Below are positions 2,189 to 20,194 of a stretch of 64,000 nt of DNA, piece after piece. Within the stretch, counting starts at the first letter, position 1. Each line of letters starts with the position of its first letter. The position numbers were made by a program, and so were the translations under genes. The stretch is from an uncultured Trueperaceae bacterium (lineage in GTDB: Bacteria; Deinococcota; Deinococci; Deinococcales; Trueperaceae). The stretch covers positions 64,001 to 128,000 of the forward strand of contig CAWFFU010000009.1 of NCBI GenBank assembly GCA_963815215.1, written 5' to 3'. The notes beneath the pieces are model-generated. The model made no database searches. It was not told the origin of the DNA and saw only the letters and a program-made list of their open reading frames with translations.

Positions 2189-3991
2189 TCAACGGTCGTC
2201 CCCGCCACGGCCTGGACGGTCGTTCGTCCGCTCCTCCCAGCGCCTCGCCGCCGCCACGACCCGCTCTCGCTGCTTCAGGGCGACGGCTGCAGGCAGGCTG
2301 CTCCAGGCCTGGAGCAGCGCACCCGGTCCGTACGGCGGGCTGTAGTACTCGACCGGCGAGGCCCACCCCTGCGCCAGGCCGTACTCCCACCAGCGCAGCA
2401 GGGGATACTCCCAGCCCGGCATGCCCGCCTTCAACAGCAGATCGGCGTAGACTCCGTCCCAGTAGGGCCAGTCGGCGCCGTTGTGATAGCGGTAGGCGAA
2501 CGCTGATTTGCTTCGCAGGTCGCGCCGCCGGCGGTACGGCGGCCAGACGCTCATCACGCCCCAGTCGCCGTAGGGCTGCTCCGCGTTGTGCCGGGTCTCG
2601 AGGGAGCGCCGTACGGCCTGCAGCAGCGCCCGCGCCTGCGCGGCGTCGGCCAGACCGAAGCGGACAGCCGTGAGGGTATCGATGGCGAGATGGTCTTCGA
2701 CGAAGCCGTCCTCCGAGACGTACTCCACGTAGTGCCCCCGGCCGGCCTGCCACAGCCGTCGATCCGCCACCGTCCGAACGCGCCCGGCGCGTTCCAGCGC
2801 TCCGTCGCGCAGGGCGTCGTCGACGCCCTCCGCCAGCACTGCGATCGCTCGAAGCGCGCCGTGGTAGAGCGCAACGTCGTAGGTGACCGGCCCCGAGCGG
2901 TACACGTTGTCGGCCCAGTCACGGTCGTTCCGCGGCTTCTCCGGCACGCCGTCGCGGTCGCGGTCGAGGCCATCGTAGCGGTGGTAGATAGCCTGCAGGT
3001 GCCCCCGATACGCCGAGACCTGCTCGCGGTCGCCGGTCGCGGCCACGTACTCGGCGAGGAGCAGTACGAACAACGCAGGCGAGTCGAAGTGATCGCTCCA
3101 CCAGTCCAGGGGACGTCGGTGGTCGCGCGCGCGACCGCGGTCCTCCGACCGGAGCGACTCCCACGCGTGCGCCTGGAACGGACCCGGCACGATGACGCCG
3201 CTGGGCGCCTCGCCGGTCTCCTGCACGCCGGATGCCAGGTGCGCCAGCAGGCCGCGCACGCTCTCGGGCGTGACCTGCAATAGTGCCTGCGCCGTCCAGT
3301 AGCCGTCCCGGTAGTAGCTGCGCGCCGGTAGCGAGTATCCCGGGCCCGCCGCGACCCCCGCGAAGCCGCCGTGGGGATCGCGCTTCACGGCCGACAGCGC
3401 GGCGTGGAGTCCGAACGCCGCCATGCTTCGGAGCAGCTGGGAGGCCTCGGGGAGGCAGTCGCAGCGCTGCTCGTAGTCGTGCGCCTCGCGGAGCAGCGTC
3501 TCGTCGGGAAGCGCCAGCGCGCGCCGGGCTTCCTCGAGGTCCTCGCCGGCGGCCAGCCGGATGCCGTCGGTCTGCCGGCGGACGAGGAGCACGCCCCACG
3601 GCAGACGGTAGGCGCGGCCCGCAGGCGTGTCCTCCACCAAGGCGCGCACGGGTTCGCGCACGGAGGCGGAAGGTCTGAGGGCGGGCACCACCCGGACGCC
3701 GGCTGGCGCGAGCCCGTCGAGCAGCAGCGTCGGACACGACCGCGCCACCACCACGCGGTAGGCGGGCGTCTCCAGCGTGTTCGGCCGGACCCGCCAGGGT
3801 CCGGCGGGCTGTGGGCCTGCTGCCCCGGGCCCTGCGGTACCTGGGAGGGTGAGGTGCCCCATCGCGCCGCAACCCCAGAGCGCGACCTCGAGGCGGCCCC
3901 CGTGCACACGCCCCTCCAATCGCGGCGCCGCGAACGGCCACGTGACGGGGCGCTCGGACTGGAGCGTGGTGCCGTCTCGAACGGCGATCAT
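2189..3991 (-). CDS. Six-hairpin (alpha/alpha)6 glycosidase, glycogen-debranching/GH116-like
   Basis: 600 aa; motifs SYYRDGYW, WWSDHFDSP, DWADNVYR, YRYHNGADWPYWDG, PVEYYSP..LQAWS resemble amylo-alpha-1,6-glucosidase-like C-terminal domains; overlaps GH31 stop by 4 nt. Confidence 0.72.
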   Translation of the reverse strand: MIAVRDGTTLQSERPVTWPFAAPRLEGRVHGGRLEVALWGCGAMGHLTLPGTAGPGAAGPQPAGPWRVRPNTLETPAYRVVVARSCPTLLLDGLAPAGVRVVPALRPSASVREPVRALVEDTPAGRAYRLPWGVLLVRRQTDGIRLAAGEDLEEARRALALPDETLLREAHDYEQRCDCLPEASQLLRSMAAFGLHAALSAVKRDPHGGFAGVAAGPGYSLPARSYYRDGYWTAQALLQVTPESVRGLLAHLASGVQETGEAPSGVIVPGPFQAHAWESLRSEDRGRARDHRRPLDWWSDHFDSPALFVLLLAEYVAATGDREQVSAYRGHLQAIYHRYDGLDRDRDGVPEKPRNDRDWADNVYRSGPVTYDVALYHGALRAIAVLAEGVDDALRDGALERAGRVRTVADRRLWQAGRGHYVEYVSEDGFVEDHLAIDTLTAVRFGLADAAQARALLQAVRRSLETRHNAEQPYGDWGVMSVWPPYRRRRDLRSKSAFAYRYHNGADWPYWDGVYADLLLKAGMPGWEYPLLRWWEYGLAQGWASPVEYYSPPYGPGALLQAWSSLPAAVALKQRERVVAAARRWEERTNDRPGRGGDDR

Positions 3992-6294
3992 GCGGGGAGG
4001 TCCCAGCGTGCGGGGAGCTCGCGCCAGCCCTCGCGCTCCGTCTCCTCGCCGGCGGCGCTGAGCCCTGCGCCGAGTCGTAGCGGGCGGGTCTCGCCAGCGG
4101 GCAGCCGTAGCGTGACGCTGCGGTCGGGGAGCGGGTAGCGGTGCTCGAGCGCCTCCGCCTCGACCACGATGGCGCCGGCGTCATAGCGCACGCGGAGATC
4201 CAGGAGGGTGCGTTCGCCGCGTTGGTACGCCAGGCTCTCGCCGTCGTCGGCGTAGAGCCGGAAGGCCGTGGCGCCCTCGCCCAGGTGAGGGTAGATACGG
4301 AGCTCCGCGACGCGCCCGTCGCGGCGCGCGCGCCCGTCCGGCGCGAAGCCGAGCGGCAGGATGGCGCCGGCCCGGACGAAGGCCGGCACCGCCTCGAGCG
4401 GGTATGGCACCGCGTGGCGCCCGGAGGGGTAGTAGCGGGCGTCCTGAAGGCGGTACCAGCCCAGCTCGCCGGGCAGGAGCGTCTCGGCCTCGCGCACGCC
4501 CGGCCCGAACGCCTCTCCTGGCACCAGGACGGCCGGGCCGAGCAGGAAGCTGAAGGGTTGCTCGTAGGCCTCGGGCGTGTCGAAGGCGTAGAACAGCGGG
4601 CGCATCACGGGCGCGCCCGTCTCGCCGTGCTCGAAGAACAGGCTGTAGAGGTAGGGCAGGAGGCGGTAGCGCAGCCGCAGGGCCTCGCGCACGGCCGGAA
4701 GCACCTCCGGGTGGCTCCACGGCTCGGTCGGCGGCGTCTTCCACGAGTGGATGACGAAGCGCGGGAAGAACACGCCCTGCTGCACCCAGCGCAGGAACAG
4801 CTCCGCGTCCGGGGCGGGACCCGCGAAGCCGCCCACGTCGTGGCCATGGTTGGCGAAGCCGCTGAGGCCCAGTGACAACCCCATGGGCGTGTTGAAGTGC
4901 AGCGACCGCCAGTCCGAGCGGTTGTCGCCGCTCCACGTCTGGGCCAGGCGCTGGACGCCCAGCGACGCCGAGCGGCTGATCACGAACGGGCGGCGCCGCG
5001 GCCGCGCCGCCTCGCACGCCCGGTACGAAGCGAGCGCCATGGCGCGCATCTGCGATGCCGGATGGGCGGGCTCCCCGCCGGCCGTGAAGGCGTCCTCGAG
5101 CGCGAACTCGTTGTTGTCGTTCCATATGCCTTCGATGCCGACGTCCAGCAATTGGGTCGTGACGCGCTCGCGCCAGTAGCGGGTGGCGACCTCGTTGGTG
5201 AAGTCGAGGAAGCTCCCCGCCCCACCCCAGAAGTCCCCGTGGTGGGGCGTACCCTCGGCCGTCCGCAGGAACGCGCCCTGCTCGGAGAGGGAGGCGTAGT
5301 CGGGATGGTCCTCGAGCATGCCGGGCTTCACGTTCGCTACGACTCGGAGCCCGCGCTCCGCCATCCTGCCCACGAGGCCGCGCGGGTCCACGATGCGGTC
5401 CGACCACGTGAACACGTAGCGGCGACCCTGTCGCAGGGTATAGCCCGACGACAGGTGCATGCCGTCCACGGGGATGCCCTCCCGCTCGCAGCGGTCCGCG
5501 AAGGCGATCAGCGCGGCCTCGGGGTCGTCGGCGTCGGCGTAGGCCATGCCCGAGGCCAGGTAGCCGAGACTCCAGCGCGGCGGGAGCTGCGGTCGGCCCA
5601 GCAGCCCCGTCAGGCGCCGCAGCAGCGTTGGCAGGTCGGGCGCGACGAGCACGTAGTACGTGAGGCCTCGCCCCCCCGCCTCGACGTAGCGGAAGGGCCC
5701 CAGATAGTTGTGGATCTCGGCGCCCAGGTCGAACACCATGGGGAAGGGCATGTCGTATACCAGCGCCGCCCAGCGGCCCTCGGGGCGGCGCAACAGCAGG
5801 ACGGGCCAGTGCTTGTAGAGGGGGTCGCCGAGCTCCGCGTCGTAGCCCAGCGCGTCCCTTGGCTCGAGCCGGTAGCGCCTTCCGGTGCGCTCCAGCGCCC
5901 CGCTGACCTCGCCCACGCCGTAGAGGCGCTCGCCGTCGGCGCGCACCTGCCGATGCGTCAGGCCGGAGCCTCCGAGGACATAGGCGTGTGTCGGGTGGTC
6001 GGCGAGAAAGGCGTTGCCGTCCACCTCCCAGTCCAACGACAGCGGCGCGCCTCGGAGCGTGACGCGGAGGCCGTCGAGTTGCACGGTCCACCGGCCGTCC
6101 TTGCTGGCGATCGAGGCCGGCGCGTGGCGCGGCGCTGCCACCGCTTCCTCCCACGACGCGTCGCCGACGATGAGCCGCACCTGGGCGACGCCGCTGGAGA
6201 CGGCCGACAGCCGGAGCGTGGCGTCGCCCACGTCCCAGCGGGCACCCTCGCGGTCCGCACCCGCGTAGCGGGCGCCCGTCAGTGTGACGCTCAT
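3988..6294 (-). CDS. Glycoside hydrolase family 31 (alpha-glucosidase-like)
   Basis: 768 aa; DPLYKHWP, PPRWSLGY, nucleophile WNDNNE, acid/base WSGDN, HDVGGF, LRYRLLPYLYS. Confidence 0.92.
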   Translation of the reverse strand: MSVTLTGARYAGADREGARWDVGDATLRLSAVSSGVAQVRLIVGDASWEEAVAAPRHAPASIASKDGRWTVQLDGLRVTLRGAPLSLDWEVDGNAFLADHPTHAYVLGGSGLTHRQVRADGERLYGVGEVSGALERTGRRYRLEPRDALGYDAELGDPLYKHWPVLLLRRPEGRWAALVYDMPFPMVFDLGAEIHNYLGPFRYVEAGGRGLTYYVLVAPDLPTLLRRLTGLLGRPQLPPRWSLGYLASGMAYADADDPEAALIAFADRCEREGIPVDGMHLSSGYTLRQGRRYVFTWSDRIVDPRGLVGRMAERGLRVVANVKPGMLEDHPDYASLSEQGAFLRTAEGTPHHGDFWGGAGSFLDFTNEVATRYWRERVTTQLLDVGIEGIWNDNNEFALEDAFTAGGEPAHPASQMRAMALASYRACEAARPRRRPFVISRSASLGVQRLAQTWSGDNRSDWRSLHFNTPMGLSLGLSGFANHGHDVGGFAGPAPDAELFLRWVQQGVFFPRFVIHSWKTPPTEPWSHPEVLPAVREALRLRYRLLPYLYSLFFEHGETGAPVMRPLFYAFDTPEAYEQPFSFLLGPAVLVPGEAFGPGVREAETLLPGELGWYRLQDARYYPSGRHAVPYPLEAVPAFVRAGAILPLGFAPDGRARRDGRVAELRIYPHLGEGATAFRLYADDGESLAYQRGERTLLDLRVRYDAGAIVVEAEALEHRYPLPDRSVTLRLPAGETRPLRLGAGLSAAGEETEREGWRELPARWDLPA

Positions 6295-8975
6295 GGCGCC
6301 CTCCCCTCGGCCGCTCCGAGCGCCGGCCCGGCACCGTCGAAGCGCAGCGGGATGACGTGTCGGAGGCCGGCGTGCTCGAGCACCATCGCGGCGTCACCGA
6401 GCTCCGTCCGCGTATAGCGGTTGTGGTAGTGCTGGAAGGCCGCGGTGTCGACGAGCGCGCCGTCCACCTGCAGGCCTTCGAGCCAGCCGAGCGTCAGCTC
6501 GCTGCCGTCGGCAGGCCGCCAGCTCAGGCGAGGGCCCTCTGCCGCGACCGGCGACGGGCCCTCGCGCAGGCGCTCGCAGAACGCCTGGAACGTTCCGTCT
6601 TCCGCCGCGCTTCCCACCGTGCACAGCCACGCAAGGCCGGCGCCGCGGCTGCGCAGCTCCTGCCGGGCGAAGCGGCCCTCCTCGGTGAGCGCGAGCGGGC
6701 CGTCGCCCCACAGGGCCACGTAGCCCGAGCCGTGGCGCGCGAACGCCCACGCCCCCTCGACGCTCCAGACGTCGAAGCTCTCGACAGGGAAGTAGGCGTG
6801 GGTGAAGCCCAGCCCCACGGCGTCGTCGAGGCGGTACAGGCAGAGCACGGTGCGGCCGTGCATGCCCACCTGGGGCAGCCGCGCCGAACCGGCCCAGAAG
6901 TTCGGACGGGCCTGGCCGTGCTCGAGCCGGTTGCCGGGGTAGGTGGTGAAGACCACCGCCTCCGGGCCGAGGGTGGCTTGCCAGAGGTGCTCCTGGATGC
7001 CCATCGCACCGGGGCGGTGGTCCAGGGCGGCGGCGAGCTGGTAGTCCGGCGTGCGTCGGGTGAGCGTGCGCACGTCCCAGCCGTCTGCGCGCATGTCGGC
7101 TTCGGGAAGGAAGTCGCCGCGGGCGTGGGCGTAGGTGACCAGCGCCTCGGGCAGGTCCGCGCCGATGGCCTGGATCACGTCCGGAACGCGATAGCGCTCA
7201 CTCATCGCGAGCAAACCGGGCGCGCGCGTCTCGCTGTTGAAGGTGCCCGTTCCCCACGCCAGGCGCTGCAGACCGGCGGTGGCGTCGTTGCGGCCCGATC
7301 TCAGCGCCCCCACGTAGCAGCGGCCATGCGTGCAACCCTGTGTGCCTCGGAAGGACTGCGCGGCCAGCATGAAGAACAGCTTGTCGAGGAGGCTCCGCGC
7401 GCGTTGGGACACGCCCTGTTCGTCGGCGAACTCCACCAGCGCCAGCAGGGCGAAGGCGTCCATCGCGAGATAGGCGTTGGAGTCCCACTCGGAGAACCCC
7501 GAGCGCAGCCGGCGCTCGATCCAGGCGAGGATCCGGCTGCGCGCGGCGGGGAGCTTCGCCGCGCCGGTGATGCCGCTGTTGCTGAAGGTGAGATCGGGCC
7601 ATCGCTGAGCTGCCAGGTACTCGCTGGCGTGGAACAGGATCTGGTGATTCTCGGTGAAGTAGCACATGGCGTCGAGGCCAGGCTCCTCGAGCCAGTACTT
7701 GAAGTGACGGAAGGCGTCGCGGATGGCCTCCAGGTCCCGGGCGTCCAACGCGGGGCTGTCGGCGAACCAGTACACGACCGCCAGCAGGCCCAGCGCGTGG
7801 AAGTCGGCGGTGTCGCGCCGCTCGTTCAGGAAGCGCAGCGAGGTCGCCACGGCCTCGCGCGCGATCCTGGGCGTGTGTCCGAGGCGCACCGCGGCCGCGC
7901 TTCCGAGCACGTCCGCGTCCATCCGTGCCAGGTGCGCCAGCGCCTCGCGCCGCCGCGATTCGTAGCTGCCGTAGGGCGTGTCGCGGTAGGCCACGAGCGC
8001 GGGCACGACCTCGTAGCGGCGCTCCAGGGGCAGGTCGGTCGCTGGCCGGATCACCAGGTCCACCCGTCCCTCGCTCAGGGTGGAGGCCACGGCGTGGCGC
8101 ACGCCACGTGCCAGCGGCAGCGCGACGCTCTGCCCGGGTTCGGCCGTGAACGTCCCGAGGTGCGAGCGGATGGGCGGATCCGACGCCAGCTCCGCCGTGA
8201 CCGTGAAGCTCACCGCAGAGCCGGCTCCGGCGGCCACGCTGGCGGCCGCCTCCTGCTCCTCCACCACGAAGCGGCTCACCTGAACGGCGCCCACGCAACG
8301 CTCGGCCTCGTGCCAGGCGCCCTCCGAGCGATCGCCGATCGGCACGCGCACGTTCAGGCCGGCCGGGTCCAGGAACCGCAGCCCGAGCGCCAGGCGTGCC
8401 TCGCGCAGCCCGATCATGTCGCCCCGCAGCCAGAGGCCGTGCACGCCTTCGTCCAGAGGGAGCGAGACCCGCACCGCGTAGGGGTGCACGTAGCTGAACG
8501 GCCGCCGGTGGTGGTGGACGAGGCGTCCGTCGAGCCACAGGTGGGCGGGCCCGATCGTGATCAGTTCGACGTCGCGAGGTCGTGCCTCGTCACAGACGAT
8601 CTCGGTGTACAGGTGGCCGCTGAATAGGGCGGGGGTGTGACTGAAGCGGCTGAAGTCGGCCGTGTCATCGTCCGGTGCCAGGTAGCGCCAGCGCATGCCA
8701 TCTCCCTCGGCCCCAGTCACCGTGGGGGCGGGGTCGATCACGTCGAGGGCGGGATCGAGCGCCTCGTAGATGCGGCTCTTGGCGGCCTGCACACGCGCGT
8801 CCCAGGCCCAGTAGTTGAGGGTCCAGCGGCCGCGTTCGCCGAAGGGCGGGCCGCTCGGCGCGAACGCCTCGGCTAGCGCCCCGTCGGCCGGGATCGGCGT
8901 GACCGAGGGACCGGAGGCGAGCCAGTGCCGGACGGCGCCGTTGGTTTCGAGGGGGTAGGTCGCGTGGTTGCTCAT
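6291..8975 (-). CDS. Uncharacterised ~894-aa cytoplasmic protein, probably carbohydrate-active (beta-rich / helical / beta-rich)
   Basis: ATG at 8975 with GGAG RBS; high GC3; motif-like segments RRDTADF, YFTENHQILFH, GFSEWDSNAY, THGRCY, RPNFWAG; 4-nt overlap with GH31 start. Confidence 0.8.
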   Translation of the reverse strand: MSNHATYPLETNGAVRHWLASGPSVTPIPADGALAEAFAPSGPPFGERGRWTLNYWAWDARVQAAKSRIYEALDPALDVIDPAPTVTGAEGDGMRWRYLAPDDDTADFSRFSHTPALFSGHLYTEIVCDEARPRDVELITIGPAHLWLDGRLVHHHRRPFSYVHPYAVRVSLPLDEGVHGLWLRGDMIGLREARLALGLRFLDPAGLNVRVPIGDRSEGAWHEAERCVGAVQVSRFVVEEQEAAASVAAGAGSAVSFTVTAELASDPPIRSHLGTFTAEPGQSVALPLARGVRHAVASTLSEGRVDLVIRPATDLPLERRYEVVPALVAYRDTPYGSYESRRREALAHLARMDADVLGSAAAVRLGHTPRIAREAVATSLRFLNERRDTADFHALGLLAVVYWFADSPALDARDLEAIRDAFRHFKYWLEEPGLDAMCYFTENHQILFHASEYLAAQRWPDLTFSNSGITGAAKLPAARSRILAWIERRLRSGFSEWDSNAYLAMDAFALLALVEFADEQGVSQRARSLLDKLFFMLAAQSFRGTQGCTHGRCYVGALRSGRNDATAGLQRLAWGTGTFNSETRAPGLLAMSERYRVPDVIQAIGADLPEALVTYAHARGDFLPEADMRADGWDVRTLTRRTPDYQLAAALDHRPGAMGIQEHLWQATLGPEAVVFTTYPGNRLEHGQARPNFWAGSARLPQVGMHGRTVLCLYRLDDAVGLGFTHAYFPVESFDVWSVEGAWAFARHGSGYVALWGDGPLALTEEGRFARQELRSRGAGLAWLCTVGSAAEDGTFQAFCERLREGPSPVAAEGPRLSWRPADGSELTLGWLEGLQVDGALVDTAAFQHYHNRYTRTELGDAAMVLEHAGLRHVIPLRFDGAGPALGAAEGRAP

Positions 8976-9030
8976 CACACTCCAGGTCGAGGGGGTCCTG
9001 CGCACGGCAGCCGGCGCATGCCGGGCGCGG

Positions 9031-9915
9031 CTACACGTGGGCGAGGTAGCGGGCTTTCATCAGCTCGAGCACGGCGTCACCCGGCTGCTCCCAGAGCTCT
9101 CGGTTGAAGATCTCGCACTCGATGGGTCCCCGGTAACCGGCCCGGTCCACCGCTCGCCGGAACTCCCGGAGCCCGATCCAGCCGTCCCCCATCATGCCCC
9201 TGCCTTCGAGCACCGCCGGCAACGGGGTGATCCAATCACTCACGTGGAACGCGAAGATCCTGTTCCCGGCGCGTGTGATCTCGGCCCCGGCGCGGGGGTC
9301 CCACCAGACGTGATAGGCGTCCACGACGACGCCGACGGTGGGATCGTCGGCGGGGAAAGGCTCGTTGAGTCGGTCGGCGGCGTCGTTGGCCTGGCCCAGG
9401 GTGACCACGACACTGCGATCGGCGCAGAACATGGGGTGGAGGGGCTCGATCCCCAGCCGCACGCCCCGCTCGCGAGCGTCTGGGGCGATGGCGGCGATAC
9501 CGTCCCACACCATCTCGCGCGCCGCGGCCACGTCGCCGCCGGGGTGGATGCCTCCACAAACCAGCACCAGTGTGTCGGCCCCCAGCTCGGCGCACTCGTC
9601 GATGGCGCGGCGGTTGTCGTCGAGCCGCGCCGCGCGCTCAGCCGCGGTGGCGGCCGGGAACATCCCGCCGCGGCACAGGCTCGAGCAGTGCACGCCCGTC
9701 TCGCGCAGCGCTCGCACGCTGTCGCGCAGGCCCTGGGCGGCCACCTTGTCGCGCCACAGGCCGACCCAGCCGAGGCCCGCCCGGGCGCAGCCCTCCACCG
9801 CTTCGGCCACGCTCCAGTGGTACGTGGTGTACTGGTTGAGGCTCAGCCGGCCGAGGTCGGGCGGCGACTCGTCGGCGCCACGCTCCGATGCGGCCCCGGC
9901 AGCGCCCGCCCTCAC
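9031..9915 (-). CDS. Sugar phosphate isomerase/epimerase (xylose-isomerase-like TIM barrel, AP_endonuc_2)
   Basis: Metal-ligand motifs IEPLHP, DAYH, FHVSD, ECEIF; RGMMGDG. Confidence 0.88.
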   Translation of the reverse strand: MRAGAAGAASERGADESPPDLGRLSLNQYTTYHWSVAEAVEGCARAGLGWVGLWRDKVAAQGLRDSVRALRETGVHCSSLCRGGMFPAATAAERAARLDDNRRAIDECAELGADTLVLVCGGIHPGGDVAAAREMVWDGIAAIAPDARERGVRLGIEPLHPMFCADRSVVVTLGQANDAADRLNEPFPADDPTVGVVVDAYHVWWDPRAGAEITRAGNRIFAFHVSDWITPLPAVLEGRGMMGDGWIGLREFRRAVDRAGYRGPIECEIFNRELWEQPGDAVLELMKARYLAHV

Positions 9916-11078
9916 GCCACGCCCCTGTCCGCCAGCACTCGCGCCATGCGGGCGGCCGCGTCCTCCGGGTCGCGCAGCAGTCCTGCCCGGTCGGCCAGCC
10001 GGAAGACCGTCCCCAGGTGCGCCGGCGAGCGCCGGTCCTCCATCCCGCCCAACATCCGGACGTGGTCCTGGTGGCCGTTGAGGTAGGCAAGCAGCACGAT
10101 CCCCACCTTGTAATCGAATGTCGGCTCGGCGAAGACGTGCCGCGATAGGCGTTCGGCCGGGGCGAGGATGGCGTCGTAGCGCTCGGGGCGGCCGGCCTCG
10201 AGCGCTGCCATGGCGGCCGCCGCGGCGGGCGCGATGGCGTCGAAGATTCCCAGCAGGCCGTCGCTGTGGCCGTGCGCGTCGCCCTTGATGAGGCGCGGGA
10301 AGGCGAAGTCGTCGCCGCTGTACATGAGCACCCCCGCGGGCAGCCGGCGCCGCAGCTCGATCTCCTTCTCGGCGTCGAGCAGGCTGATCTTCACGCCGTC
10401 AACCTTGCCCGGGTGCTCCGCGATGATGCCGAGCAGGGTGGCGGCCGCGGCGGAGAAGCCGCTGGCGCCCCAGTAGCCCGCCAGCGCCGGGTCGAACATC
10501 GGCCCCAGCCAGTGGAGGATGACCGGCGCCGACACCTGCCGCAGGACCCGCCCGTACACCGCGGCGTAGTCCTCGGCGCCGCGTGCGACGGCGGCGAGCT
10601 GGCGCGAGGCCATCATGATGACCCGCCCGCCGCACGCCTCCACGTGGGCGACCTGCTCCTCGTAGGCGGCGCCGATGTCGTCGAGCGTGAGGCGAGGGCT
10701 CTCGTCGGGGAGCTGGTCGGTCCCCGCGCCGCAGGCGATGCGGCCGCCGGCGCTGCGCGCCTCGGCGCACGCCCGCCGGATCAGCTCGCGGCTGGCGGGG
10801 TGATCCAGGCCCATGCCGCGCTGGGCGGTGTCCATGGCCTCGGCCACGCCGAAGCCGTAGCGCCACAGGTGGTGGCGGTAGCGCAGGGTGGCGTCCCAGT
10901 CGAGGGCGGCCGGCTCACCGGGGCCGCGCGCGGCGGACGGGTCGGCCACCACGTGGGCGGCGGCGTAGAGCACGCGGCTGGTGAAGGGGCGCTCCGGCGG
11001 AGGGTAGGCGGCCGCACCACGCAGCCGGTAGCGCTCCAGGCGGCCGTCCTCGGTGGGGAGGTCGATGACGGTGGCCAC
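9912..11078 (-). CDS. DUF993 / dihydrodipicolinate-synthase-like TIM-barrel protein
   Basis: AAAHVVADP, VAEAMDTAQRGMGL, GAGTDQL, ILHWLG, DGVKISLLD (candidate Schiff-base Lys), YSGDDF. Confidence 0.85.
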   Translation of the reverse strand: MATVIDLPTEDGRLERYRLRGAAAYPPPERPFTSRVLYAAAHVVADPSAARGPGEPAALDWDATLRYRHHLWRYGFGVAEAMDTAQRGMGLDHPASRELIRRACAEARSAGGRIACGAGTDQLPDESPRLTLDDIGAAYEEQVAHVEACGGRVIMMASRQLAAVARGAEDYAAVYGRVLRQVSAPVILHWLGPMFDPALAGYWGASGFSAAAATLLGIIAEHPGKVDGVKISLLDAEKEIELRRRLPAGVLMYSGDDFAFPRLIKGDAHGHSDGLLGIFDAIAPAAAAAMAALEAGRPERYDAILAPAERLSRHVFAEPTFDYKVGIVLLAYLNGHQDHVRMLGGMEDRRSPAHLGTVFRLADRAGLLRDPEDAAARMARVLADRGVA

Positions 11079-11085
11079 GGCCCGG

Positions 11086-12258
11086 CTAGCGTCCTAGCTC
11101 CGGCACGTCGACCCAGCGCCGCTCGCGCCAGGAGGCGTGTGCCAGCTCCGCGAGTTGCACGCCCTTGGCGCCCTCCAGCAGGGTGTGGGGGAAGGGCGCG
11201 CCGCTCGCCAGGTGGCGCAGGAAGGCCTCCCATTGCGCCCGGAAGCCGTTGGGGAACGGCTGGTTGTCGGGGACCTCCTGCCAGCCGCCGAAGAAGTCGA
11301 TGGGGCTGGGCACGTCGGGGTTCCACACCGGCTTGGGGGTGGCGCTCCGGTGCTGGGCCTTGCACGAGCGCAGGCCCGCGACCGCGCTGCCCTCGGTGCC
11401 GTCCACCTGCAGGGCGACCAACTCGTCGCGGTAGACGCGCGTGGTCCACGACGAGTTGATCTGGGCGACGATCCCGCCGTCCAGTTCGAACAGCGCGTAG
11501 GCGGCGTCGTCGGCGGTGGCGGCGTAGGCCGCGCCGTGCTCGTCACGGCGATCCGGGACGTGGGTGGCGCCCAGGCACAGCACCGAACGCACCTCGCCGA
11601 AGAGATGGTCGAGCAGGTAGCGCCAGTGCGGCAGCATGTCGAGGATGATGCCGCCGCCCTCCTCGCGGCGGTAGTTCCAGCTGGGGCGTTGGGCGGGTTG
11701 CCAGTCGCCCTCGAACACCCAGTAGCCGAACTCGCCGCGCACCGACAGGATGCGGCCGAAGAAGCCGCCGTCGATCAGGCGCTTGAGCTTGAGCAGGCCG
11801 GGCAGGTAGAGCTTGTCCTGCACCACCCCCGTTCGCACCCCGGCACGGTCGGCGAGCGCCGCCAGGTCGAGCGCCTCAGCGAGCGTGGATGCCACCGGCT
11901 TCTCGGTGTAGACGTGCTTGCCGGCGGCGATGGCCTTGCGCAGGTTGTCGGGGCGGAGCTGCGTAGTGACCGCGTCGAAGTAGACGGCGTCGTCGGGATC
12001 GGCCAGGCAGGCGTCCAGGTCGTCGCTGAGGCGCTGGATGCCGGTCTCGGCCGCCAACGCCTGCAGCTTGGCCGGGTCGCGGCCCACCAGGATGGGGTCG
12101 GGGAGCAGGCGGCGGCCGCCGGGCAGCGTCACGCCGCCGTCCTGGCGGATGGCCAGGATCGATCGCAGCAGGTGCTGGTTCTTGCCCATGCGGCCGGTGA
12201 CGCCGTTCATGATGATGCCGATGCGCTCGGGCTCGCGCGCGGCCCCGGTTGCGCTCAT
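11086..12258 (-). CDS. Gfo/Idh/MocA family oxidoreductase
   Basis: NGVTGRMG Rossmann motif, KHVYTEKP, GGGIILDMLPHW. Confidence 0.92.
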   Translation of the reverse strand: MSATGAAREPERIGIIMNGVTGRMGKNQHLLRSILAIRQDGGVTLPGGRRLLPDPILVGRDPAKLQALAAETGIQRLSDDLDACLADPDDAVYFDAVTTQLRPDNLRKAIAAGKHVYTEKPVASTLAEALDLAALADRAGVRTGVVQDKLYLPGLLKLKRLIDGGFFGRILSVRGEFGYWVFEGDWQPAQRPSWNYRREEGGGIILDMLPHWRYLLDHLFGEVRSVLCLGATHVPDRRDEHGAAYAATADDAAYALFELDGGIVAQINSSWTTRVYRDELVALQVDGTEGSAVAGLRSCKAQHRSATPKPVWNPDVPSPIDFFGGWQEVPDNQPFPNGFRAQWEAFLRHLASGAPFPHTLLEGAKGVQLAELAHASWRERRWVDVPELGR

Positions 12259-13343: not shown

Positions 13344-14527
13344 TCAGGCTCCCGTCCCGTGCGCCGCGCCGGCTCCCTGCACGACGTTCCCGTGCGCGGC
13401 GTCTCCGGACATGGCGTCGTAGAAGGAGTCGCCCGGGGTGATGCTGCCGCGCTCCACGCGCGTCCCGGTGAACGCCGACGCGTACAGGCTGGCGAGGAAC
13501 TCCAGCGTCGCGCGGGCCCCGGGGCCGCTGGTGAGCGGCCGCTCGCCGCGCTCCAGGCAGTCGAGGACGTGGCTCAGCTGCGCCTGGTGGAGCGAGGGCA
13601 CGTCGGGCGGCAGGGCTCGCCAGCGCGCCAGTTCGGCGTCGTCGGGCGAGCCGTCCGGCAGGGTGTAGCGCCAGTCGTCGTTGCGGTAGCCGTAGAGGTG
13701 GTGGAGCTCCACCGTCGCCCGCGCGAAGTCCAGGCGCAGCACGCTCTCCTGGCGGGGCGAAACCGCCGAGTTGAGGATGGTGCCGAGCGCGCCGCTCTCG
13801 AAGCGAACGCTCGCCACCGCCACGTCCTCGACCTCGATGGCGTGCCCCAGCGTGCCGGCCATGGCGCTGACCTCGGCCCAGGGGCCGAAGAGCCACAGCA
13901 GCAGGTCCATGGCGTGGATGCCGTGGATCATGCTGGTGCCGCCCAGCTCGGTGGCCCAGCTGCCGCGCCACGGCACCGCGTAGTAGGCGTCGTCGCGGTA
14001 CCAGGTGGTCTGGCACAGCCCCAGCATGGGGCGGCCGAGGGCGCCCTCGGCGATGAGTCGCTGGAGGTGCCTGGCGCCCGCGCCGAAGCGCCACTGGTAG
14101 ACGCTGCTGCAGGTCGCGCCGGAGCGGGCCTCCGCCTCCTGGATGGCGTCCAGCTCCCGCAGGGAGCCGGCCAGCGGCTTCTCGCACAGCACCCAGGCGC
14201 CCGCCTCCAGCGAGCGGATGCACTGCGCCGAGTGCAGGCTCGGCGGCGTGCAGATGAGCACCAGCTCGGGGCGCTCGCGCTCCAGCATGGCGTCCAGGTC
14301 GCTATGCACCGCGGGCACGCCGTGCGCCTCCGCGAACGCCCTCGCCCTGGCCCCGTCGATGTCGACGGCCGCCACCAGCTCGGCGCGGTCCTGCTCCGCG
14401 CGCAGCGCGGCGGCGTGCTGCGCGGCGATGGCGCCGGTGCCTACGATCGCCGTCCTCACCCGGCGGCTCCCCGGCCCCCCCGCGCCCGGCGCACCTGCTC
14501 CCCGCCCGCCCGCCCCCTCGCAGGCCA

Positions 14528-14528
<1 letters not shown>
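13344..14528 (-). CDS. Gfo/Idh/MocA family oxidoreductase
   Basis: AIVGTGAIA, VLCEKP, GGTSMIHGIH; start taken at the ATG overlapping the permease stop (TGATG); GTG at 14460 is an alternative. Confidence 0.9.
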
Positions 14529-15580
<1,052 letters not shown>

Positions 15581-15643
15581 GACAGCCCTCCCGGGTTACG
15601 CCCCGACGCTCCGGCGTCGACGGACGGGCTCTGGCGCGAAGGA

Positions 15644-16672
15644 TCAGGTGGCATCGGAGCGCCTTCCCGCCCATAGCTGGACCAGCGTGAGCACCAGCAG
15701 CACCAGGCCCAGGAGGACGGACGCGGCGGCGGCCAGGCCGAACCTGCGGATCTGCGAGGCGAACGCGGTGTTGTAGATGTACTGAACGATGAAGGTCGTG
15801 GCCGTGCCGGGCCCGCCGCCCGTGAACGCGAAGACCTCGTCGAAGAGCTGCACGGCCCGGATGAGGGCCAGCACCAGCACGACGAGAAGGGTGGGCATCA
15901 GGAGCGGCAGGGTGACATAGCGGAACGATTGCCACGCGCCGGCGCCGTCGATGGCTCCGGCCTCGTAGAGCTCCGCGGGGATCGATTGCAGTCCCGCCAG
16001 AAGGATGAGTGTGTAGAAGCCCATCGTCGCCCAGGTGGTGGTGAACACCACCCAGAACATCGCCCAGTGGGCGTTCAGCAGGAAGAGCACCTTGTGGCCC
16101 CCGAGCATCTGGATGAATGCGTTCAGCAGACCCTCGCGTTGGAGGATCCACTTCCAGATGAGCGCCACCACGACGGGAGACAGGAGCACCGGGTAGAAGA
16201 ACACGCTCCGGAAGAACCCGCGGAAGCGGAACGTGCGGTTGAGCACCATGGCGGTGATCAGCGCGAACAACACGAGCGCGATGAGCTGGGCCGGGACGAA
16301 GATAAATGCGTTGTGCACGGCGCGCCAGAAGGTGTCCTCCTGGCAGGTGCTGGGCTGAAGGAAATTCCCGCAGTTGAAGATCCGCTGGAAGTTGCTGGTT
16401 CCCACGAACGGCCGGTTCTGCGGGAACAGGTTCGTGCCTCCGGTGAACGCGTAATAGAAGTTGAGCAGCATCGGGAACAGCACGAAGATGCCGAAGATAG
16501 CGAGGTTGGGCAGCAGGAACACCCACGGCATGCGCTTCACGCCGATGGCGCGCTGCACCGGTGCCATCACAAGGTCGAGGGTGTTCATCAGGAAGGTGAA
16601 CAGCCCCCGCAAGGCGCGGCCCGGCACGCTCAGCACTCCCTTCAGCGCACGAGGAACGGACTCTGCTCGCAA
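15644..16672 (-). CDS. Carbohydrate ABC transporter permease (MalF-like)
   Basis: LAGLQSIPAELYEAGAIDGAGAW; TGGGPG. Confidence 0.93.
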   Translation of the reverse strand: MRAESVPRALKGVLSVPGRALRGLFTFLMNTLDLVMAPVQRAIGVKRMPWVFLLPNLAIFGIFVLFPMLLNFYYAFTGGTNLFPQNRPFVGTSNFQRIFNCGNFLQPSTCQEDTFWRAVHNAFIFVPAQLIALVLFALITAMVLNRTFRFRGFFRSVFFYPVLLSPVVVALIWKWILQREGLLNAFIQMLGGHKVLFLLNAHWAMFWVVFTTTWATMGFYTLILLAGLQSIPAELYEAGAIDGAGAWQSFRYVTLPLLMPTLLVVLVLALIRAVQLFDEVFAFTGGGPGTATTFIVQYIYNTAFASQIRRFGLAAAASVLLGLVLLVLTLVQLWAGRRSDAT

Positions 16673-16686
16673 TGCTTCCTCCTCGA

Positions 16687-16720
16687 GGTACCCGGTGGAG
16701 GGGAGCCTCCACCGGGTACC
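16687..16720 (-). other. 15-bp perfect stem-loop after the solute-binding protein gene (mRNA stabiliser or partial terminator)
   Basis: GGTACCCGGTGGAGG-ggag-CCTCCACCGGGTACC; no U-tract. Confidence 0.7.
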
Positions 16721-16746
16721 GGTCCGATCTCAGGGAAGGAACGTGC

Positions 16747-18021
16747 TCACTGCGACGAGCCCGCCGCGGAGAGCTGCTCGTCGATGTCTTGTTGGATGCG
16801 CTGGACGGCCTGGTCCATGGTCAGCTCGCCGACCATGACCTGCGTCAACCGGTCGCGGATGGCGTTGAAGTAGGTGGTGTTGTACTTGTACGCCTGCAGC
16901 TTGTAGGCCAGCGGGGCGAGCTTCGGGACCTGGCTGGAGAACGTCTGCAGCGCCGCCTTGGCGAACTGGTTGTCGGTCTGGAAGTCGATGCCTTGCTTTG
17001 CCAGGCTGAGGGACCCGGGGATGAAGAGGGTGCGCGCGTAGAACTCCGCGAGGTTGTCGGGCTGCGTCAAGAACTCCATGAGCTTCGCGACCGCCTCGGG
17101 GTGCTTAGTCTCCTTCAGGGCGACCAGAGCAGCGCCACCAGGCATGCCCGTGCAGGCGGCGGGGCCGCAGGGGTTGGGCACGGCGACCCAGTCGAAGGCG
17201 TTGCCGATCTTGCTGGCGAACTGGCTGATCTGCCAGCTGCCGGACATGTAGAAGACGATCTGGCCGTTGATGAAGTCCTGGTTTCCGGCTGCGTACTGGC
17301 CCGAGGTACCGATCCAGATGCTCGGGTCCATGGTGCCGTCCTTGTTCCACTGCACCAGGAGCTGTGCCATCTTGCGGAAGCCCGCGTCGTCGATCTTCGG
17401 CTTGCCCTGCGCGTCGAAGAACTTGGCGCCCATGCTGACCGCCGGACCGGCGAAGCGGTGCCCGGAACGGTCCATGGCCATGGCGAAGGGGGTGCCCGTG
17501 GCCTTGGCCACCTTGCGGCTCACGTCGGCCCACTGCTCCCAGGTGGTGTCGCCCTGCGGCAGGGGGATCCCGGCCTGGTCGAAGAGCGTCTTGTTCACGA
17601 AGGGGCCCGTGACCGTGAGCTGCGTCATGTAGCCGGGGATCGCCTTGGAGCCCGGGGGCCGCATCCAATCGAGGAACGGCCCGAAGTTCGTCTCCCAATA
17701 GCTCGAATCCTTGAGGTACGGCGTGAGGTCGAGGTAGTACTTCTCGAGACCGCCGAGGTCCGTCACGCGCGCCAGGTCGGGGCCCTGGCCAGACGCCAGC
17801 TGCAGCGGCAGTGACTGCAAGATGCCCTGCGCGTACGAGACGGTGTCCAGTGTGACGGTGATGTCGGGGTTCTGGGCCTCGAACTTGTTCAGCAGGTCCT
17901 GCATGACCTGCCCCTCGTTGCCGTCGTTGTACCAGGCGATGCGCAGGTGGGTCTGCGCCAGGGCGGTCATCCCGCCCATCATCGCGGCGAGTAGCAAGAA
18001 CATCCGCATGCGTCGAATCAT
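16747..18021 (-). CDS. Carbohydrate ABC transporter substrate-binding protein
   Basis: Signal peptide (..TALAQ), PDLARV, SBP_bac_1-like pattern; GAGGAGG RBS. Confidence 0.92.
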   Translation of the reverse strand: MIRRMRMFLLLAAMMGGMTALAQTHLRIAWYNDGNEGQVMQDLLNKFEAQNPDITVTLDTVSYAQGILQSLPLQLASGQGPDLARVTDLGGLEKYYLDLTPYLKDSSYWETNFGPFLDWMRPPGSKAIPGYMTQLTVTGPFVNKTLFDQAGIPLPQGDTTWEQWADVSRKVAKATGTPFAMAMDRSGHRFAGPAVSMGAKFFDAQGKPKIDDAGFRKMAQLLVQWNKDGTMDPSIWIGTSGQYAAGNQDFINGQIVFYMSGSWQISQFASKIGNAFDWVAVPNPCGPAACTGMPGGAALVALKETKHPEAVAKLMEFLTQPDNLAEFYARTLFIPGSLSLAKQGIDFQTDNQFAKAALQTFSSQVPKLAPLAYKLQAYKYNTTYFNAIRDRLTQVMVGELTMDQAVQRIQQDIDEQLSAAGSSQ

Positions 18022-18250: not shown

Positions 18251-18931
18251 TCACAACGGCGCCCTCGCGAGGTGCCCTCGTGCTTCGAGGTGCTCGGTGT
18301 AGGCGGCCAGGGCCGCCCGGTTGTGCTCGCGCAGGCCGCGCTCGGTGGCAGCCGGGTCGCGCCGCTTCAGGGCCGCCAGCAGGGCCACGTGGTCCTGCTG
18401 GGCCTCGGGGATGCGGCGCGAGAACACCTCGTCCAGGAAGTGACGCCGCAGCCGGTCCCAGTGGTCCAGGGCGATGTCCAGCACCCTGGCGGCGAGGCCC
18501 GTCCCCGAGCGCTCGCCGATGAAGTGGTGGAGTTGCTTGTTGCGGAGCGACCAGGCCTCGGCATCGCGCATCGACGCGCCCATGGCCGCTACGAAGCGCT
18601 CGAGCCAGGCCAGATCGTCGTTAGCCAGTCGCTCGCACGCCGCCCGACTGGTGATGATCTCCATCGCTTCGAGCACCTGGAACACCTCGCGGACGTCCTT
18701 GGCATGCAGCTCGGTGACGCGCGCACCGACGTGCGCCTCGAGCGTGACGAAGCCCGCCGCCTCGAGGCGGAACAGCGCCTCGCGGATTGGGATCTGGCTC
18801 ACCCCCAGCTGCTCGGCGAGGTGGTCGATCACGAGGCGCGATCCCGGCTCCAGCTGGCCATCCAGGATCAAGGTGTGCACGTGGTCGTACACCTGCTCGT
18901 TCTTGCTCTTGAAGACGCGAGCGCCTTCCAC
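18251..18931 (-). CDS. GntR family (FCD) transcriptional regulator
   Basis: LEPGSRL..LAEQLGVSQIPIREALFRLEAAGFV winged HTH; FCD-type C-terminus. Confidence 0.92.
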   Translation of the reverse strand: MEGARVFKSKNEQVYDHVHTLILDGQLEPGSRLVIDHLAEQLGVSQIPIREALFRLEAAGFVTLEAHVGARVTELHAKDVREVFQVLEAMEIITSRAACERLANDDLAWLERFVAAMGASMRDAEAWSLRNKQLHHFIGERSGTGLAARVLDIALDHWDRLRRHFLDEVFSRRIPEAQQDHVALLAALKRRDPAATERGLREHNRAALAAYTEHLEARGHLARAPL

Positions 18932-18957
18932 GAGGCCTCCAGCGAACTGACGTTTCG

Positions 18958-18975
18958 TACATCCTATAGGATGCA
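18958..18975. promoter_or_regulatory. Putative GntR operator
   Basis: Perfect 14-bp palindrome CATCCTATAGGATG (18960-18973) ~30 bp upstream of the gntR start. Confidence 0.65.
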
Positions 18976-19048
18976 GGCGTCCACGGCAACGGGGCTGCGC
19001 TCGCCGAGGTACTCCAGTTGCCGCGTCGCCGGGACCTCCTGCCGCCCC

Positions 19049-20194
19049 TCAGGGCGTCAGCGTCGCGTCGAGCCAGTCGAAGGCCGCATCCTGCATCTCG
19101 ACGTCGAAGCGATGCGGGCCCGGGTAGAACCGGCCCTGGTAGCCGCCGGCCGCGCCGGCGGTGGCGTAGGTGCGCCGTATGGCTGCGTCGGCGGCCCGCA
19201 TGCCGGCCACAGGGAAGAGGGCGTCGTCCTCGGCATACTGCACCAGCAGCGGGCGCGGCGCGGCGCACGCCGCCACGTCGGGCCAGTCGCCGTGGCGGGC
19301 GAGCCCGGGCGGGAACATCATCCAGGTGTGGGCGTGGACGTGCGCGTCCAGCAGTGCGCCGTAGGTGCTCATCATGCCGACGACGACCGTCGCCGCCAGC
19401 CCGTCGTGCGTCGCGGAGAGGAGTGCGGCGCGCGCTCCGCCGCCGGACAAGCCGATGGCACCCAACCGTCCGCCATCGACCTCCGGCCGGGAGGCCAGGT
19501 AGCTCAGCGCGACGCGGTCCTCGTAGCTCACCAGGGCCGCGATCGAGGTGCCGAGCGCGGCGCAGTACTTCGCCACCAGGTGCTCGTGGAGCTCGGCGGC
19601 GGCGTTGTACCGGGCGACGTCGTCGGGTTCTCCCCTGTCCCGGTAGCCGGCGACCGCGCCCGCCACCAGCTCGGGTGTGCGCTCCGGCATGGTGGCGAGC
19701 GCGAAGCGCCTGCTGCCCCACAGAAAGACGTCGGGCACCAGCACCACGAAGCCGCGCTCGGCCAGGCGGTTGGCGAAGGCGACGCCCCCGTAGGCCCGCT
19801 CGCGGAGCCGCCGCACGGCCTCGACGGGCGCTTGGTCGTCGTCGGCGACCTTCTCTTTGCCGAGCAGCTTGAAGTTGCCGTGGTCGTGCAGCGCCAGCAC
19901 GCCGGGGAGCCTGGCGGCGGTCGGGGACGCCGGCCGCAGCAGCCACGCGCGCGTGCGCGGCCCGTACCCCACGCTCCACGACAGCTCCTCGCCCCGGACG
20001 CCACCTTGCTGCCAGCTGCGCTCCACCACCGGGTCCTGCGGCGCCTCCGGGCGGAAGCCGACGTCCAGGAGCTGCCGGATGCCGGCAGGGGAGACGCCGG
20101 CCGACCGCGGCGGCTCCCGCGAGCCGCGCAGGCCGCCCGTGGCGTCGACCAGGTCGCTGAAATCACCGAGGTGTCGGTATCGCTTCTGCGCCAC
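19049..20194 (-). CDS. Alpha/beta hydrolase (dienelactone hydrolase-like, possible esterase)
   Basis: ALHDHG, nucleophile elbow GLSGGG, DDALF (Asp), YPGPHRF (His). Confidence 0.85.
   Translation of the reverse strand: MAQKRYRHLGDFSDLVDATGGLRGSREPPRSAGVSPAGIRQLLDVGFRPEAPQDPVVERSWQQGGVRGEELSWSVGYGPRTRAWLLRPASPTAARLPGVLALHDHGNFKLLGKEKVADDDQAPVEAVRRLRERAYGGVAFANRLAERGFVVLVPDVFLWGSRRFALATMPERTPELVAGAVAGYRDRGEPDDVARYNAAAELHEHLVAKYCAALGTSIAALVSYEDRVALSYLASRPEVDGGRLGAIGLSGGGARAALLSATHDGLAATVVVGMMSTYGALLDAHVHAHTWMMFPPGLARHGDWPDVAACAAPRPLLVQYAEDDALFPVAGMRAADAAIRRTYATAGAAGGYQGRFYPGPHRFDVEMQDAAFDWLDATLTP

Follow-up and report, generated by a model that had tools for sequence, protein, structure and literature searches.

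Which carbohydrate does a run of 13 genes break down, and by what chemistry, when it pairs an ABC-type sugar importer with enzymes from families to which no reaction has been assigned? The run lies on the minus strand at positions 2189-20194 of a 64,000-nucleotide (nt) stretch of DNA, the window (contig CAWFFU010000009.1, positions 64,001-128,000), from an uncultured Trueperaceae bacterium, and its genes are labeled here in the order of transcription, from G13 at the 20194 end to G1 at the 2189 end. A first-pass annotation had read it as a candidate pathway of glycoside catabolism by oxidation and elimination. Our analysis shows that the operon is a mosaic of two independently conserved modules and a lineage-specific glycosidase, G1. 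The feature is real. Two enzyme families without characterized chemistry lie inside a regulated carbohydrate operon with an ABC importer, and the cluster points to carbohydrate chemistry that has not yet been described; the substrate itself cannot be named from the sequence.

Two Modules Within One Operon

All 13 genes are intact, co-oriented minus-strand open reading frames (ORFs), with no internal stops, and six of their junctions overlap or abut. G9 and G8 overlap by 1 nt, G8 and G7 abut, and the junctions G7/G6, G5/G4, G3/G2, and G2/G1 are 4-nt overlaps, while 7 nt separate G6 from G5, 55 nt separate G4 from G3, and the largest intergenic gap from G11 to G1 is 74 nt. The co-oriented genes and overlapping stop and start codons of the first-pass annotation are therefore borne out, and so is its statement that a sugar kinase is missing. 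Families were assigned to the 13 proteins by Pfam and NCBIfam profile searches with the family cut-offs, and no kinase family was found among them; the PfkB genes nearest to the operon are at 57747-58715 and 62047-63045.

One of the two modules, module B, is a triad of consecutive genes, G6-G5-G4 (lengths in amino acids, aa):

11086-12258, minus strand: G6, Gfo/Idh/MocA oxidoreductase, 390 aa, first gene of the triad; matches PDB entry 3oqb, uncharacterized, at 4.1e-169
9912-11078, minus strand: G5, DUF993 (PF06187), 388 aa; Pfam E 1.5e-171, PDB entry 4dnh at 9e-133
9031-9915, minus strand: G4, TIM barrel of the AP_endonuc_2 family (xylose-isomerase-like), 294 aa, third and last gene of the triad; Pfam 6e-40

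A scan for DUF993 in one genome per species confirmed 577 relatives; from these, 80 loci were retained and searched by tblastn with all 13 proteins of the window. The cassette is present in the genomes of at least 577 species and in none of 14 well-known control genomes, an absence that could explain why it escaped genetic study. The 80 loci span Alphaproteobacteria, Streptomyces, Bacillota, a Truepera metagenome-assembled genome (MAG), Gemmatimonadota, and Chloroflexota. G5 is found in all 80, G4 in 75, and G6 in 69, always on the same strand and in the order G6-G5-G4, with G6 (59-76% identity) directly upstream of DUF993 in each of those 69. Homologs of G1, G2, G3, G11, and G13 were detected by tblastn in none of the 80, and G7 and G8 in four and eight, mostly as weak matches. 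Regulators and transporters vary from locus to locus: a TetR_C_29 regulator lies by the triad in 35 of the 80, an NMT1-type solute-binding protein in 20, TctC in 11, TctA in 9, and CUT2 in 9. In a genome of the same family (loci L091 and L092; compared loci carry L numbers) the triad is surrounded by UxaC, SDR, and a TTT transporter. A flanking GntR regulator is 57% identical to G12 of the window in the Truepera MAG (L044) and 43% identical in L091.

The other module, module A, comprises the importer together with G3 and G8, in some loci joined by G7, GH31, and an esterase:

16747-18021, minus strand: G11, extracellular CUT1-type binding protein for solutes, 424 aa; Sec signal peptide present, Pfam SBP_bac_1/SBP_bac_8
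15644-16672, minus strand: G10, ABC permease; Pfam BPD_transp_1
14528-15580, minus strand: G9, ABC permease; Pfam BPD_transp_1
13344-14528, minus strand: G8, Gfo/Idh/MocA oxidoreductase (Pfam) with an EKP motif, 394 aa; its ATG overlaps the G9 stop codon
12255-13343, minus strand: G7, divergent member of the Gfo/Idh/MocA family, 362 aa; its Pfam GFO_IDH_MocA score of 24.8 bits just passes the cut-off of 24
6291-8975, minus strand: G3, cytoplasmic protein of an unannotated family, 894 aa; no signal peptide and no Pfam, NCBIfam, or PDB sequence match

A metagenome scan with G3 gave 80 loci, in which the close orthologs (45-60% identity) form 21 distinct clusters, 15 of them with at least 3 kb of flank. 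In these 15 de-duplicated loci G3 is accompanied by G9 in nine, G10 in eight, G11 in seven, G8 in eight, GH31 in five, and G7 in three. The adjoining permease orthologs are 61-79% identical to G9 and G10, those of G11 are 48-59% identical, and those of G8, the commonest enzyme neighbor of close G3 orthologs, 47-55%. The triad occurs in only 2 of the 15, both near relatives of the window, and module A recurs without it in Chloroflexota-like metagenome contigs. Esterases also recur near G3 orthologs: AXE1/DLH homologs of G13 (25-28% identity) adjoin G3 or transporter orthologs in L123/L124 and L145, which fits the earlier idea of an acylated substrate. In L130 (11241-13925) the genes after a close G3 ortholog encode a Cgl0159-like protein, a GH4 glycosidase of the NAD-dependent kind, and a class-III aminotransferase, and GH4 also lies beside a distant G3 member in L147.

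Among 41 related genomes, DUF993 is present in six and G3 in three. The relative with genome label G008 (L095) has the same operon at 96-100% identity, that with label G006 (L094) has G6-G5-G4-G3, and in the Truepera MAG and in genome G010 a G8-G7 pair is joined to the triad. The full combination of modules is confined to this genome and its near relatives (G008/L095, L110, L111, and in part G006/L094), and G1 was found in none of the compared loci except L095 and L110, which are near-identical relatives. The importer thus keeps company with G3 and G8, the triad moves by itself, and G1 was encountered in this one species only. The neighborhood analysis of DUF993 and of the 894-aa homologs, suggested with the first-pass annotation, hence returned two separate modules. 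By placing both behind one importer and one regulator, the window offers a single substrate to seek, and assigning an activity to G3 or to the triad would annotate thousands of genes.

A Lyase-Type Fold in the Large G3 Family

The first-pass annotation had described the 894-aa protein as an orphan, which is refuted by at least 208 full-length homologs of about 890 aa, mostly labeled as Chloroflexota hypothetical proteins and none with a Pfam domain. The family comprises 2605 representative clusters at E <= 1e-3 and 935 at E <= 1e-30, and many of its representatives are 600-700 aa long and lack the N-terminal domains. In 401 genomes of the phylum to which L030 belongs only distant relatives were found (7 of 401, 29-40% identity). 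No Pfam family was found in G3 members (32 of 32) beyond chance-level matches. Of 32 sampled family representatives, 28 have no Pfam match and two have weak sub-threshold matches only; one of the 32 (P0176) is fused to a GH88 unsaturated-glucuronyl-hydrolase domain (residues 675-985) and another (P0250) to a Ca-dependent PI-PLC-like domain (residues 578-828).

An AlphaFold 2 (AF2) model of G3 built with 32 homologs (pLDDT 84.8, pTM 0.88) divides into a PA14/GH2-N-like beta-sandwich, an Ig-like domain, an alpha/alpha toroid (about 338-606), and a C-terminal beta-sandwich. In structure comparison with VIA, residues 335-845 match lyase folds with Z 8-10 over 380-440 aligned residues. The relatives include heparinase III (5jmf, Z 10.0, 390 aligned; 4fnv, 9.4), dermatan-sulfate epimerase (6hzn, 9.3), and, with Z 8-9, PL8/PL15/PL17/PL40-type lyases that act on chondroitin, hyaluronate, alginate, xanthan, and ulvan (1f1s, 1hm2, 7r2x, and 6ljl, down to 8.9). 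Residues N443-H444, Y502, H550, R552, and Y554 of G3 are invariant. Residues 10-210 match PA14/GH2-type sugar-binding sandwiches by the same method. When Foldseek was run with the whole model, the N-terminal sandwich was the sole part to align, with GH2 enzymes (TM about 0.1), and the result was discarded as a guide to function. The model thus shows a polysaccharide-lyase-type toroid-plus-sandwich fold in a very large family without annotation, sharing with heparinase II/III-like and PL8/PL15/PL17 lyases and with the dermatan-sulfate epimerase the predicted order of an alpha/alpha toroid followed by an antiparallel beta-sandwich. G3 differs from these lyases in having neither a polysaccharide lyase (PL) Pfam domain nor profile similarity to the Hepar_II_III_C proteins with which it was compared, in its additional PA14-like and Ig-like N-terminal domains, and in being cytoplasmic, with no signal peptide.

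The neighbors of distant family members were examined in 42 loci with 104 neighboring ORFs. L187 has KduI and an SDR upstream and GH88 and GH5 downstream, L162 has PfkB and Eda (KDPG aldolase), L171 a PL22-like gene, and L153 a Hepar_II_III_C fragment, and the remaining loci were uninformative. These associations are small in number but specific to lyase-product metabolism.

DUF993 and the Schiff-Base Aldolase Fold

Solved structures exist for every protein of the triad, yet none has a function. For G4 the PDB matches are 7vpf (1e-103), 3qc0, and 3ju2 (SMc04130), all without assigned function, and for G6 the match is 3oqb; the G5 match, 4dnh, is titled 'hypothetical protein SMc04132,' and no member of DUF993 has been characterized. 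Literature searches on DUF993, PF06187/IPR009334, 4DNH, 7VPF, the other PDB codes of the triad, and SMc04129-04134, with subscription papers and supplements outside their scope, returned nothing relevant, as did searches on a putative Paenibacillus sugar isomerase and on Gfo proteins together with a polysaccharide lyase and KduI.

The AF2 model of G5 (pLDDT 90.6) matches 4dnh with a VIA Z of 55 and 27 DHDPS/NAL-type chains with Z 22.7-29.2 over about 290 aligned residues, compared with at most 15.5 for other TIM barrels. Its structural relatives are YagE, DHDPS, HOGA, NAL, L-KDA dehydratase, KDG aldolases, and PhdJ. In an alignment of 17 DUF993 sequences from at least five phyla (mean identity 65%), K230 is invariant (17 of 17), and it lies in predicted strand 226-232, which is strand 6, a position that we take to be that of the Schiff-base lysine in the DHDPS/NAL superfamily. 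When DUF993 was compared by hhalign with a single DHDPS sequence, the one encoded in the same genome, K230 fell opposite the lysine of AVKES, but the alignment is not significant (E 0.058). In the model, DUF993 is thus folded like the class-I (Schiff-base) aldolases and dehydratases of 2-oxo acids, and its predicted strand 6 carries an invariant lysine. The family differs from the DHDPS/NAL superfamily in having no Pfam DHDPS (PF00701) match, G5 matching only PF06187 at E <= 0.01, in a different strand-2 motif (the stretch after strand 2 is MDTAQRGMG), and in about 35 extra N-terminal residues. The aldol-type role that the first-pass annotation gave to DUF993 would fit Schiff-base chemistry on this modeled fold.

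Other genomes place further genes beside the triad. In Alphaproteobacteria an unannotated gene of 470 aa lies directly upstream of it in 29 of the 80 DUF993 loci (for example, L031, 7393-8805, plus strand), with no Pfam match and no PDB sequence match (E >= 0.12). It shows no similarity to the 498-aa Truepera ORF. Its 'LDANEQY' stretch resembles the metal sites of the enolase superfamily, and the gene may encode a fourth pathway enzyme. In the Truepera MAG (L044, 13405-19266) the triad and a GntR gene are followed by a FAH hydrolase, an APH-like kinase, an enolase, an SDR, an MR/MLE dehydratase, and a second SDR, a set that resembles non-phosphorylative deoxy-sugar-acid (fuconate/rhamnonate-type) routes.

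Gfo/Idh/MocA Proteins and Characterized Pathways

The PDB sequences nearest to G8 are 3q2i and 3q2k, at 3e-40, which we take to be WlbA UDP-GlcNAcA 3-dehydrogenases, followed by DgpA (7xr9) at 2.7e-21. In G7 the Rossmann match is weak and the EKP motif is replaced by DKG; the protein matches 2p2s (2.8e-106) and 3u3x, both uncharacterized structures. It pairs with G8 beside the triad in L044 and L096 and beside G3 in L112 and L123.

None of the 13 operon proteins reaches an NCBIfam equivalog cut-off, and the nearest structures of G4, G5, G6, and G7 are uncharacterized. The conclusion that the core enzymes match no characterized pathway is thus supported at the level of sequence, and the match that could have overturned the first-pass proposal was not found. 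One of the closest known parallels is the route for unsaturated uronates (a polysaccharide lyase and GH88, then KduI, KduD, KdgK, and Eda), which likewise has a lyase-fold enzyme followed by isomerase-, reductase-, and aldolase-type proteins, and to which the G3 family is linked by members fused or adjacent to GH88, KduI plus SDR, or PfkB plus Eda. The operon differs in that the canonical families are missing, with AP_endonuc_2, Gfo, and DUF993 proteins as the proposed stand-ins, and in that no kinase is present, so that the aldolase step would be non-phosphorylative. KDPG aldolase (PF01081) is also absent from the window's genome (97% complete), which fits a non-canonical end of the route.

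Glycosidases, Esterase, Importer, and Regulator

The remaining genes of the operon, and a candidate control site, are as follows:

19049-20194, minus strand: G13, alpha/beta-hydrolase (dienelactone-hydrolase-like) esterase, 381 aa; Pfam DLH E 6.9e-8, GLSGG motif
18251-18931, minus strand: G12, GntR + FCD regulator (FadR subfamily), 226 aa; Pfam GntR 1.6e-16, FCD 6.6e-14
18960-18973, no strand assigned: perfect 14-bp palindrome CATCCTATAGGATG; the GTG start of gntR follows 29 nt downstream
3988-6294, minus strand: G2, GH31 alpha-glycosidase of the alpha-glucosidase type, 768 aa; Pfam PF13802, PF01055 (9.3e-84), PF21365, PF17137
2189-3991, minus strand: G1, probable (alpha/alpha)6 glycosidase of the GDE_C/GH63/GH116-like clan, 600 aa, last gene of the operon; sub-threshold Pfam matches

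The translation of G2 contains the motifs WNDNNE and HDVGGF, which we take to be GH31 signatures, and its nearest PDB relative is alpha-glucosidase II (5djw, 3.5e-64); it remains below the equivalog cut-offs for MalA (230 bits against 800) and alpha-xylosidase (197 against 606). Sulfoquinovosidase was considered for G2 and rejected, none being found among its 42 PDB matches at E <= 1e-30 and TauE lying beside one related locus only (L115). The six-hairpin assignment of G1 draws on Pfam matches below the gathering cut-offs (DUF608, 26.2 bits against 26.3; MGH1-like, 23.6 against 27) and on its neighbor clusters in the Atlas, which carry GDE_C, DUF608, MGH1-like, and GH63 domains.

The CUT1 importer is represented by an SBP_bac_1 binding protein and two BPD_transp_1 permeases, and an ATPase (ABC_tran) was not found in the operon, a shared ATPase elsewhere in the genome not having been searched for. 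The best solved relative of G11, a distant one, is the arabino-oligosaccharide binding protein 6rjy (E 1.2e-17). The GntR/FCD regulator and the perfect palindrome that had been placed at the head of the run are both there, but gntR is the second gene, and G13, upstream of it, probably forms a separate transcription unit. With up to 3 mismatches allowed, the palindrome CATCCTATAGGATG has no second match in the window, although the statistics are weak in that 36 of 100 shuffles also give a match at that level. No copy lies upstream of the binding-protein gene G11, and none was found in the 191 other loci compared; the related contigs stop short of gntR. The site is therefore a candidate GntR operator and/or promoter element, an auto-operator at most, with no conservation behind it.

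A Proposed Pathway and Its Alternatives

That this is a regulated operon for import and catabolism is supported, and we tentatively describe it as a GntR-controlled system for the uptake and the cytoplasmic, kinase-free breakdown of an oligosaccharide. The best explanation, to which we give a probability of roughly 0.4, is the import of a possibly acylated, acidic alpha-glucoside oligosaccharide, its trimming, lyase cleavage by G3, and breakdown by the triad. The CUT1 transporter G11/G10/G9 would import an oligosaccharide containing alpha-glucosides, probably with uronic-acid residues and possibly with acyl groups, which G13 would strip, and GH31 (G2) and the six-hairpin G1 would take off the alpha-glucosyl residues. 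G3 would then cut the remaining linkage by beta-elimination, with the adjacent Gfo pair G8/G7 acting on its substrate or its product. The released keto-sugar acid would be isomerized or dehydrated by G4, G6 would provide an NAD(P)-dependent redox step, and DUF993 would split the keto-sugar acid into pyruvate-like C3 units by way of a Schiff base on a lysine, such that the triad would stand in for KduI/KduD/KdgK/Eda. Beyond the modeled folds and the module structure, this explanation is supported by the lyase-product genes near distant G3 members, by UxaC beside the triad in L091 and L067, by the alpha-glucuronidase (GH67) that adjoins it in L003, by the 3q2i/3q2k relatives of G8, and by the missing PF01081 aldolase.

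A number of observations weigh against this explanation. GH88, GH105, KduI, and UxaC are not found in the operon, and two KduI/IolB-family genes lie elsewhere in the window's genome. The annotated loci of close G3 orthologs contain no uronate-specific genes and have GH31, esterases, a Zn-dependent alcohol dehydrogenase, and GH4 instead. Uronate markers are also rare in the 80 DUF993 loci (UxaC 1, GH67 1, Eda 1, KduI 0, GH88 0). A neutral oligosaccharide is what GH31, G1, and the nearest of the solved binding proteins would suggest as substrate. The fold match of G3 is moderate (Z 8-10, root-mean-square deviation 5.5-7.3 Å), and a comparison with 19 Hepar_II_III_C proteins, the sole PL group profiled, gave no homology (hhalign probability 0.7%). 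In DUF993, the GxTGE-type motif that we take to be typical of DHDPS enzymes is missing, so that its substrate need not be a 2-oxo acid.

The model of the first-pass annotation, in which a Gfo protein oxidizes C3 of a glycoside, G4 eliminates the aglycone, the keto-sugar is reduced by another Gfo protein, and an aldol cleavage by DUF993 completes the sequence, resembles the 3-keto-glycoside systems of A. tumefaciens and DgpA/DgpBC in its Gfo proteins (three here), its xylose-isomerase-like TIM barrel, the absence of a sugar kinase, and the match of G8 to DgpA, and the NAD-dependent GH4 beside G3 relatives in L130 and L147 would also suit it. This chemistry is established in A. tumefaciens for the GlycDH/AtOGE/AtHYD/Gfo system, which uses two barrels and offers no counterpart to DUF993 or to the lyase-fold G3 (PMC10628242). 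The operon, however, has one AP_endonuc_2 gene among 13, neither a second barrel nor a small beta subunit was found in it, and since its largest gap from G11 to G1 is 74 nt there is no room for a DgpB-like small subunit gene. The Gfo proteins do not reach the NCBIfam equivalogs for glycoside 3-dehydrogenase, disaccharide 3-dehydrogenase, or levoglucosan dehydrogenase, and score far below the cut-offs (BT_2158, 21.5 bits against 750; levoglucosan dehydrogenase, 57-61 against 650). None of the nine PDB matches of G4 at E <= 0.01 is an eliminase, which is weak evidence, as the known eliminases are unrelated to one another in sequence (PMC10628242). G4 is moreover locked with G6 and G5 in a glycosidase-free cassette. 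That cassette also lacks a G11-type binding protein and often adjoins TTT or NMT1-type transporters, which suggests that G4 acts on a free small molecule and not on a glycoside. The pairing of the barrel with Gfo proteins as a Dgp-type eliminase is therefore unsupported as written, and with the triad autonomous, the barrel single, and the small subunit gene missing, the model as a whole is weakened and seems to us unlikely. On its modeled fold, the lyase-type G3, which the first-pass annotation had missed, is more likely than G4 to be the non-hydrolytic bond-cleaving enzyme. More doubtful is a hybrid scheme in which G8, with G7, makes the keto-glycoside, G3 rather than G4 performs the beta-elimination, with the ketone and not a uronate carboxylate as the activating group, and the triad consumes the sugar. 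It draws on the occurrence of G8 orthologs beside close G3 orthologs in 8 of 15 loci, which lack uronate genes, and on the lyase/epimerase fold of G3, albeit with no profile similarity to the sampled Hepar_II_III_C-type proteins. The association of distant G3 members with GH88, KduI, and Eda speaks instead for classical uronate lyase chemistry, and we know of no enzyme of this lyase/epimerase fold that acts on keto-glycosides.

Co-transcription need not mean a shared substrate, and the modules could be functionally unrelated, two or three independent units in a single transcript, as their separation almost everywhere outside this genome and its near relatives would allow. Against this stand the 4-nt overlaps at module borders (G3/G2, G2/G1; the gap at G4/G3 is 55 nt) and the G8/G7-like pairs, which suggest a metabolic link between the modules because they occur with both; we consider such independence improbable, less so than the hybrid scheme with its ketone-activated elimination but more so than the first-pass model. 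The least probable account is that the redox, barrel, and DUF993 proteins break down a carbocyclic or polyol aglycone, inositol- or quinate-like, once GH31 and G1 have removed glucose. Inosose and dehydroshikimate are substrates of known AP_endonuc_2 dehydratases, the pairing of a Gfo dehydrogenase with such a barrel is also the pattern of myo-inositol catabolism (IolG/IolE), and the best NCBIfam match of G4 is QuiC (2.2e-11). Loci in Streptomyces place PfkB, an additional barrel, and a CUT2 transporter close to the triad, and those in Bradyrhizobium a VOC dioxygenase-like gene (16 of 80 loci) and a P450 (13 of 80). The scores argue otherwise, with 64, 30, and 105 bits for the IolG equivalog (TIGR04380) against a cut-off of 355 and 43 bits for QuiC against 1200; IolB, IolC, IolD, and IolJ are missing from the operon, and the DHDPS-type fold of DUF993 would favor open-chain keto acids. 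Lyase cleavage of an acidic oligosaccharide followed by breakdown through the triad hence remains our preferred explanation. A bolder version is unlikely, in our estimation to the same degree as the first-pass model: G3 would found a large new lyase-fold family, maybe one of keto-activated elimination together with G8, and the triad would convert a keto-sugar or keto-sugar acid to C3 units with three enzymes and no kinase, its aldolase representing a new branch of the Schiff-base type. If activity were found, a new CAZy family and a new kinase-free route for sugar acids could be added.

Genes Around the Operon

On the low side the operon is flanked by a convergent gene for a secreted S8 peptidase with BACON/Ig-like N-terminal domains (26-1837), and on the high side by a LysM/M23 peptidase (20521-21714, four LysM domains and an M23 domain) followed by a VanY-LysM carboxypeptidase, in a span that reaches 22844. 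These flanking genes (26-1837, 20521-22844) belong to cell-wall or protein turnover and are unconnected with the operon, which for this reason is taken to end at 2189. The window has a G+C content of about 72%, which falls to 62-66% over the transporter genes (15001-18000). Because the GC3 of G9-G11 stays at 0.90-0.96, as in other genes, the dip reflects amino-acid composition and not foreign DNA, and recent horizontal transfer, considered as its cause, was ruled out.

Two further sugar clusters are present in the window. The first (46664-53722, minus strand) encodes a GH66-family protein of the dextranase/cycloisomaltooligosaccharide glucanotransferase type together with a ROK/MarR regulator and a permease and binding protein of the CUT1 type, and the second (57747-63950) encodes two kinases of the PfkB family and a protein with a SIS domain, along with a CUT1 binding protein and two permeases. 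Closer to the operon, adjoining ORFs at 23716-26418 with PPDK_N and PEP-utilizers mobile domains, preceded by a MarR gene (22912-23442) and followed by an MFS transporter, encode a PEP-synthase-like phosphotransferase that either is split in two or has a wrongly called start. At 33665-35263 lies a 532-aa fusion of an aldo/keto reductase with RidA/L-PSP, whose neighbors are an IclR regulator and two peptide-type (SBP_bac_5) ABC systems.

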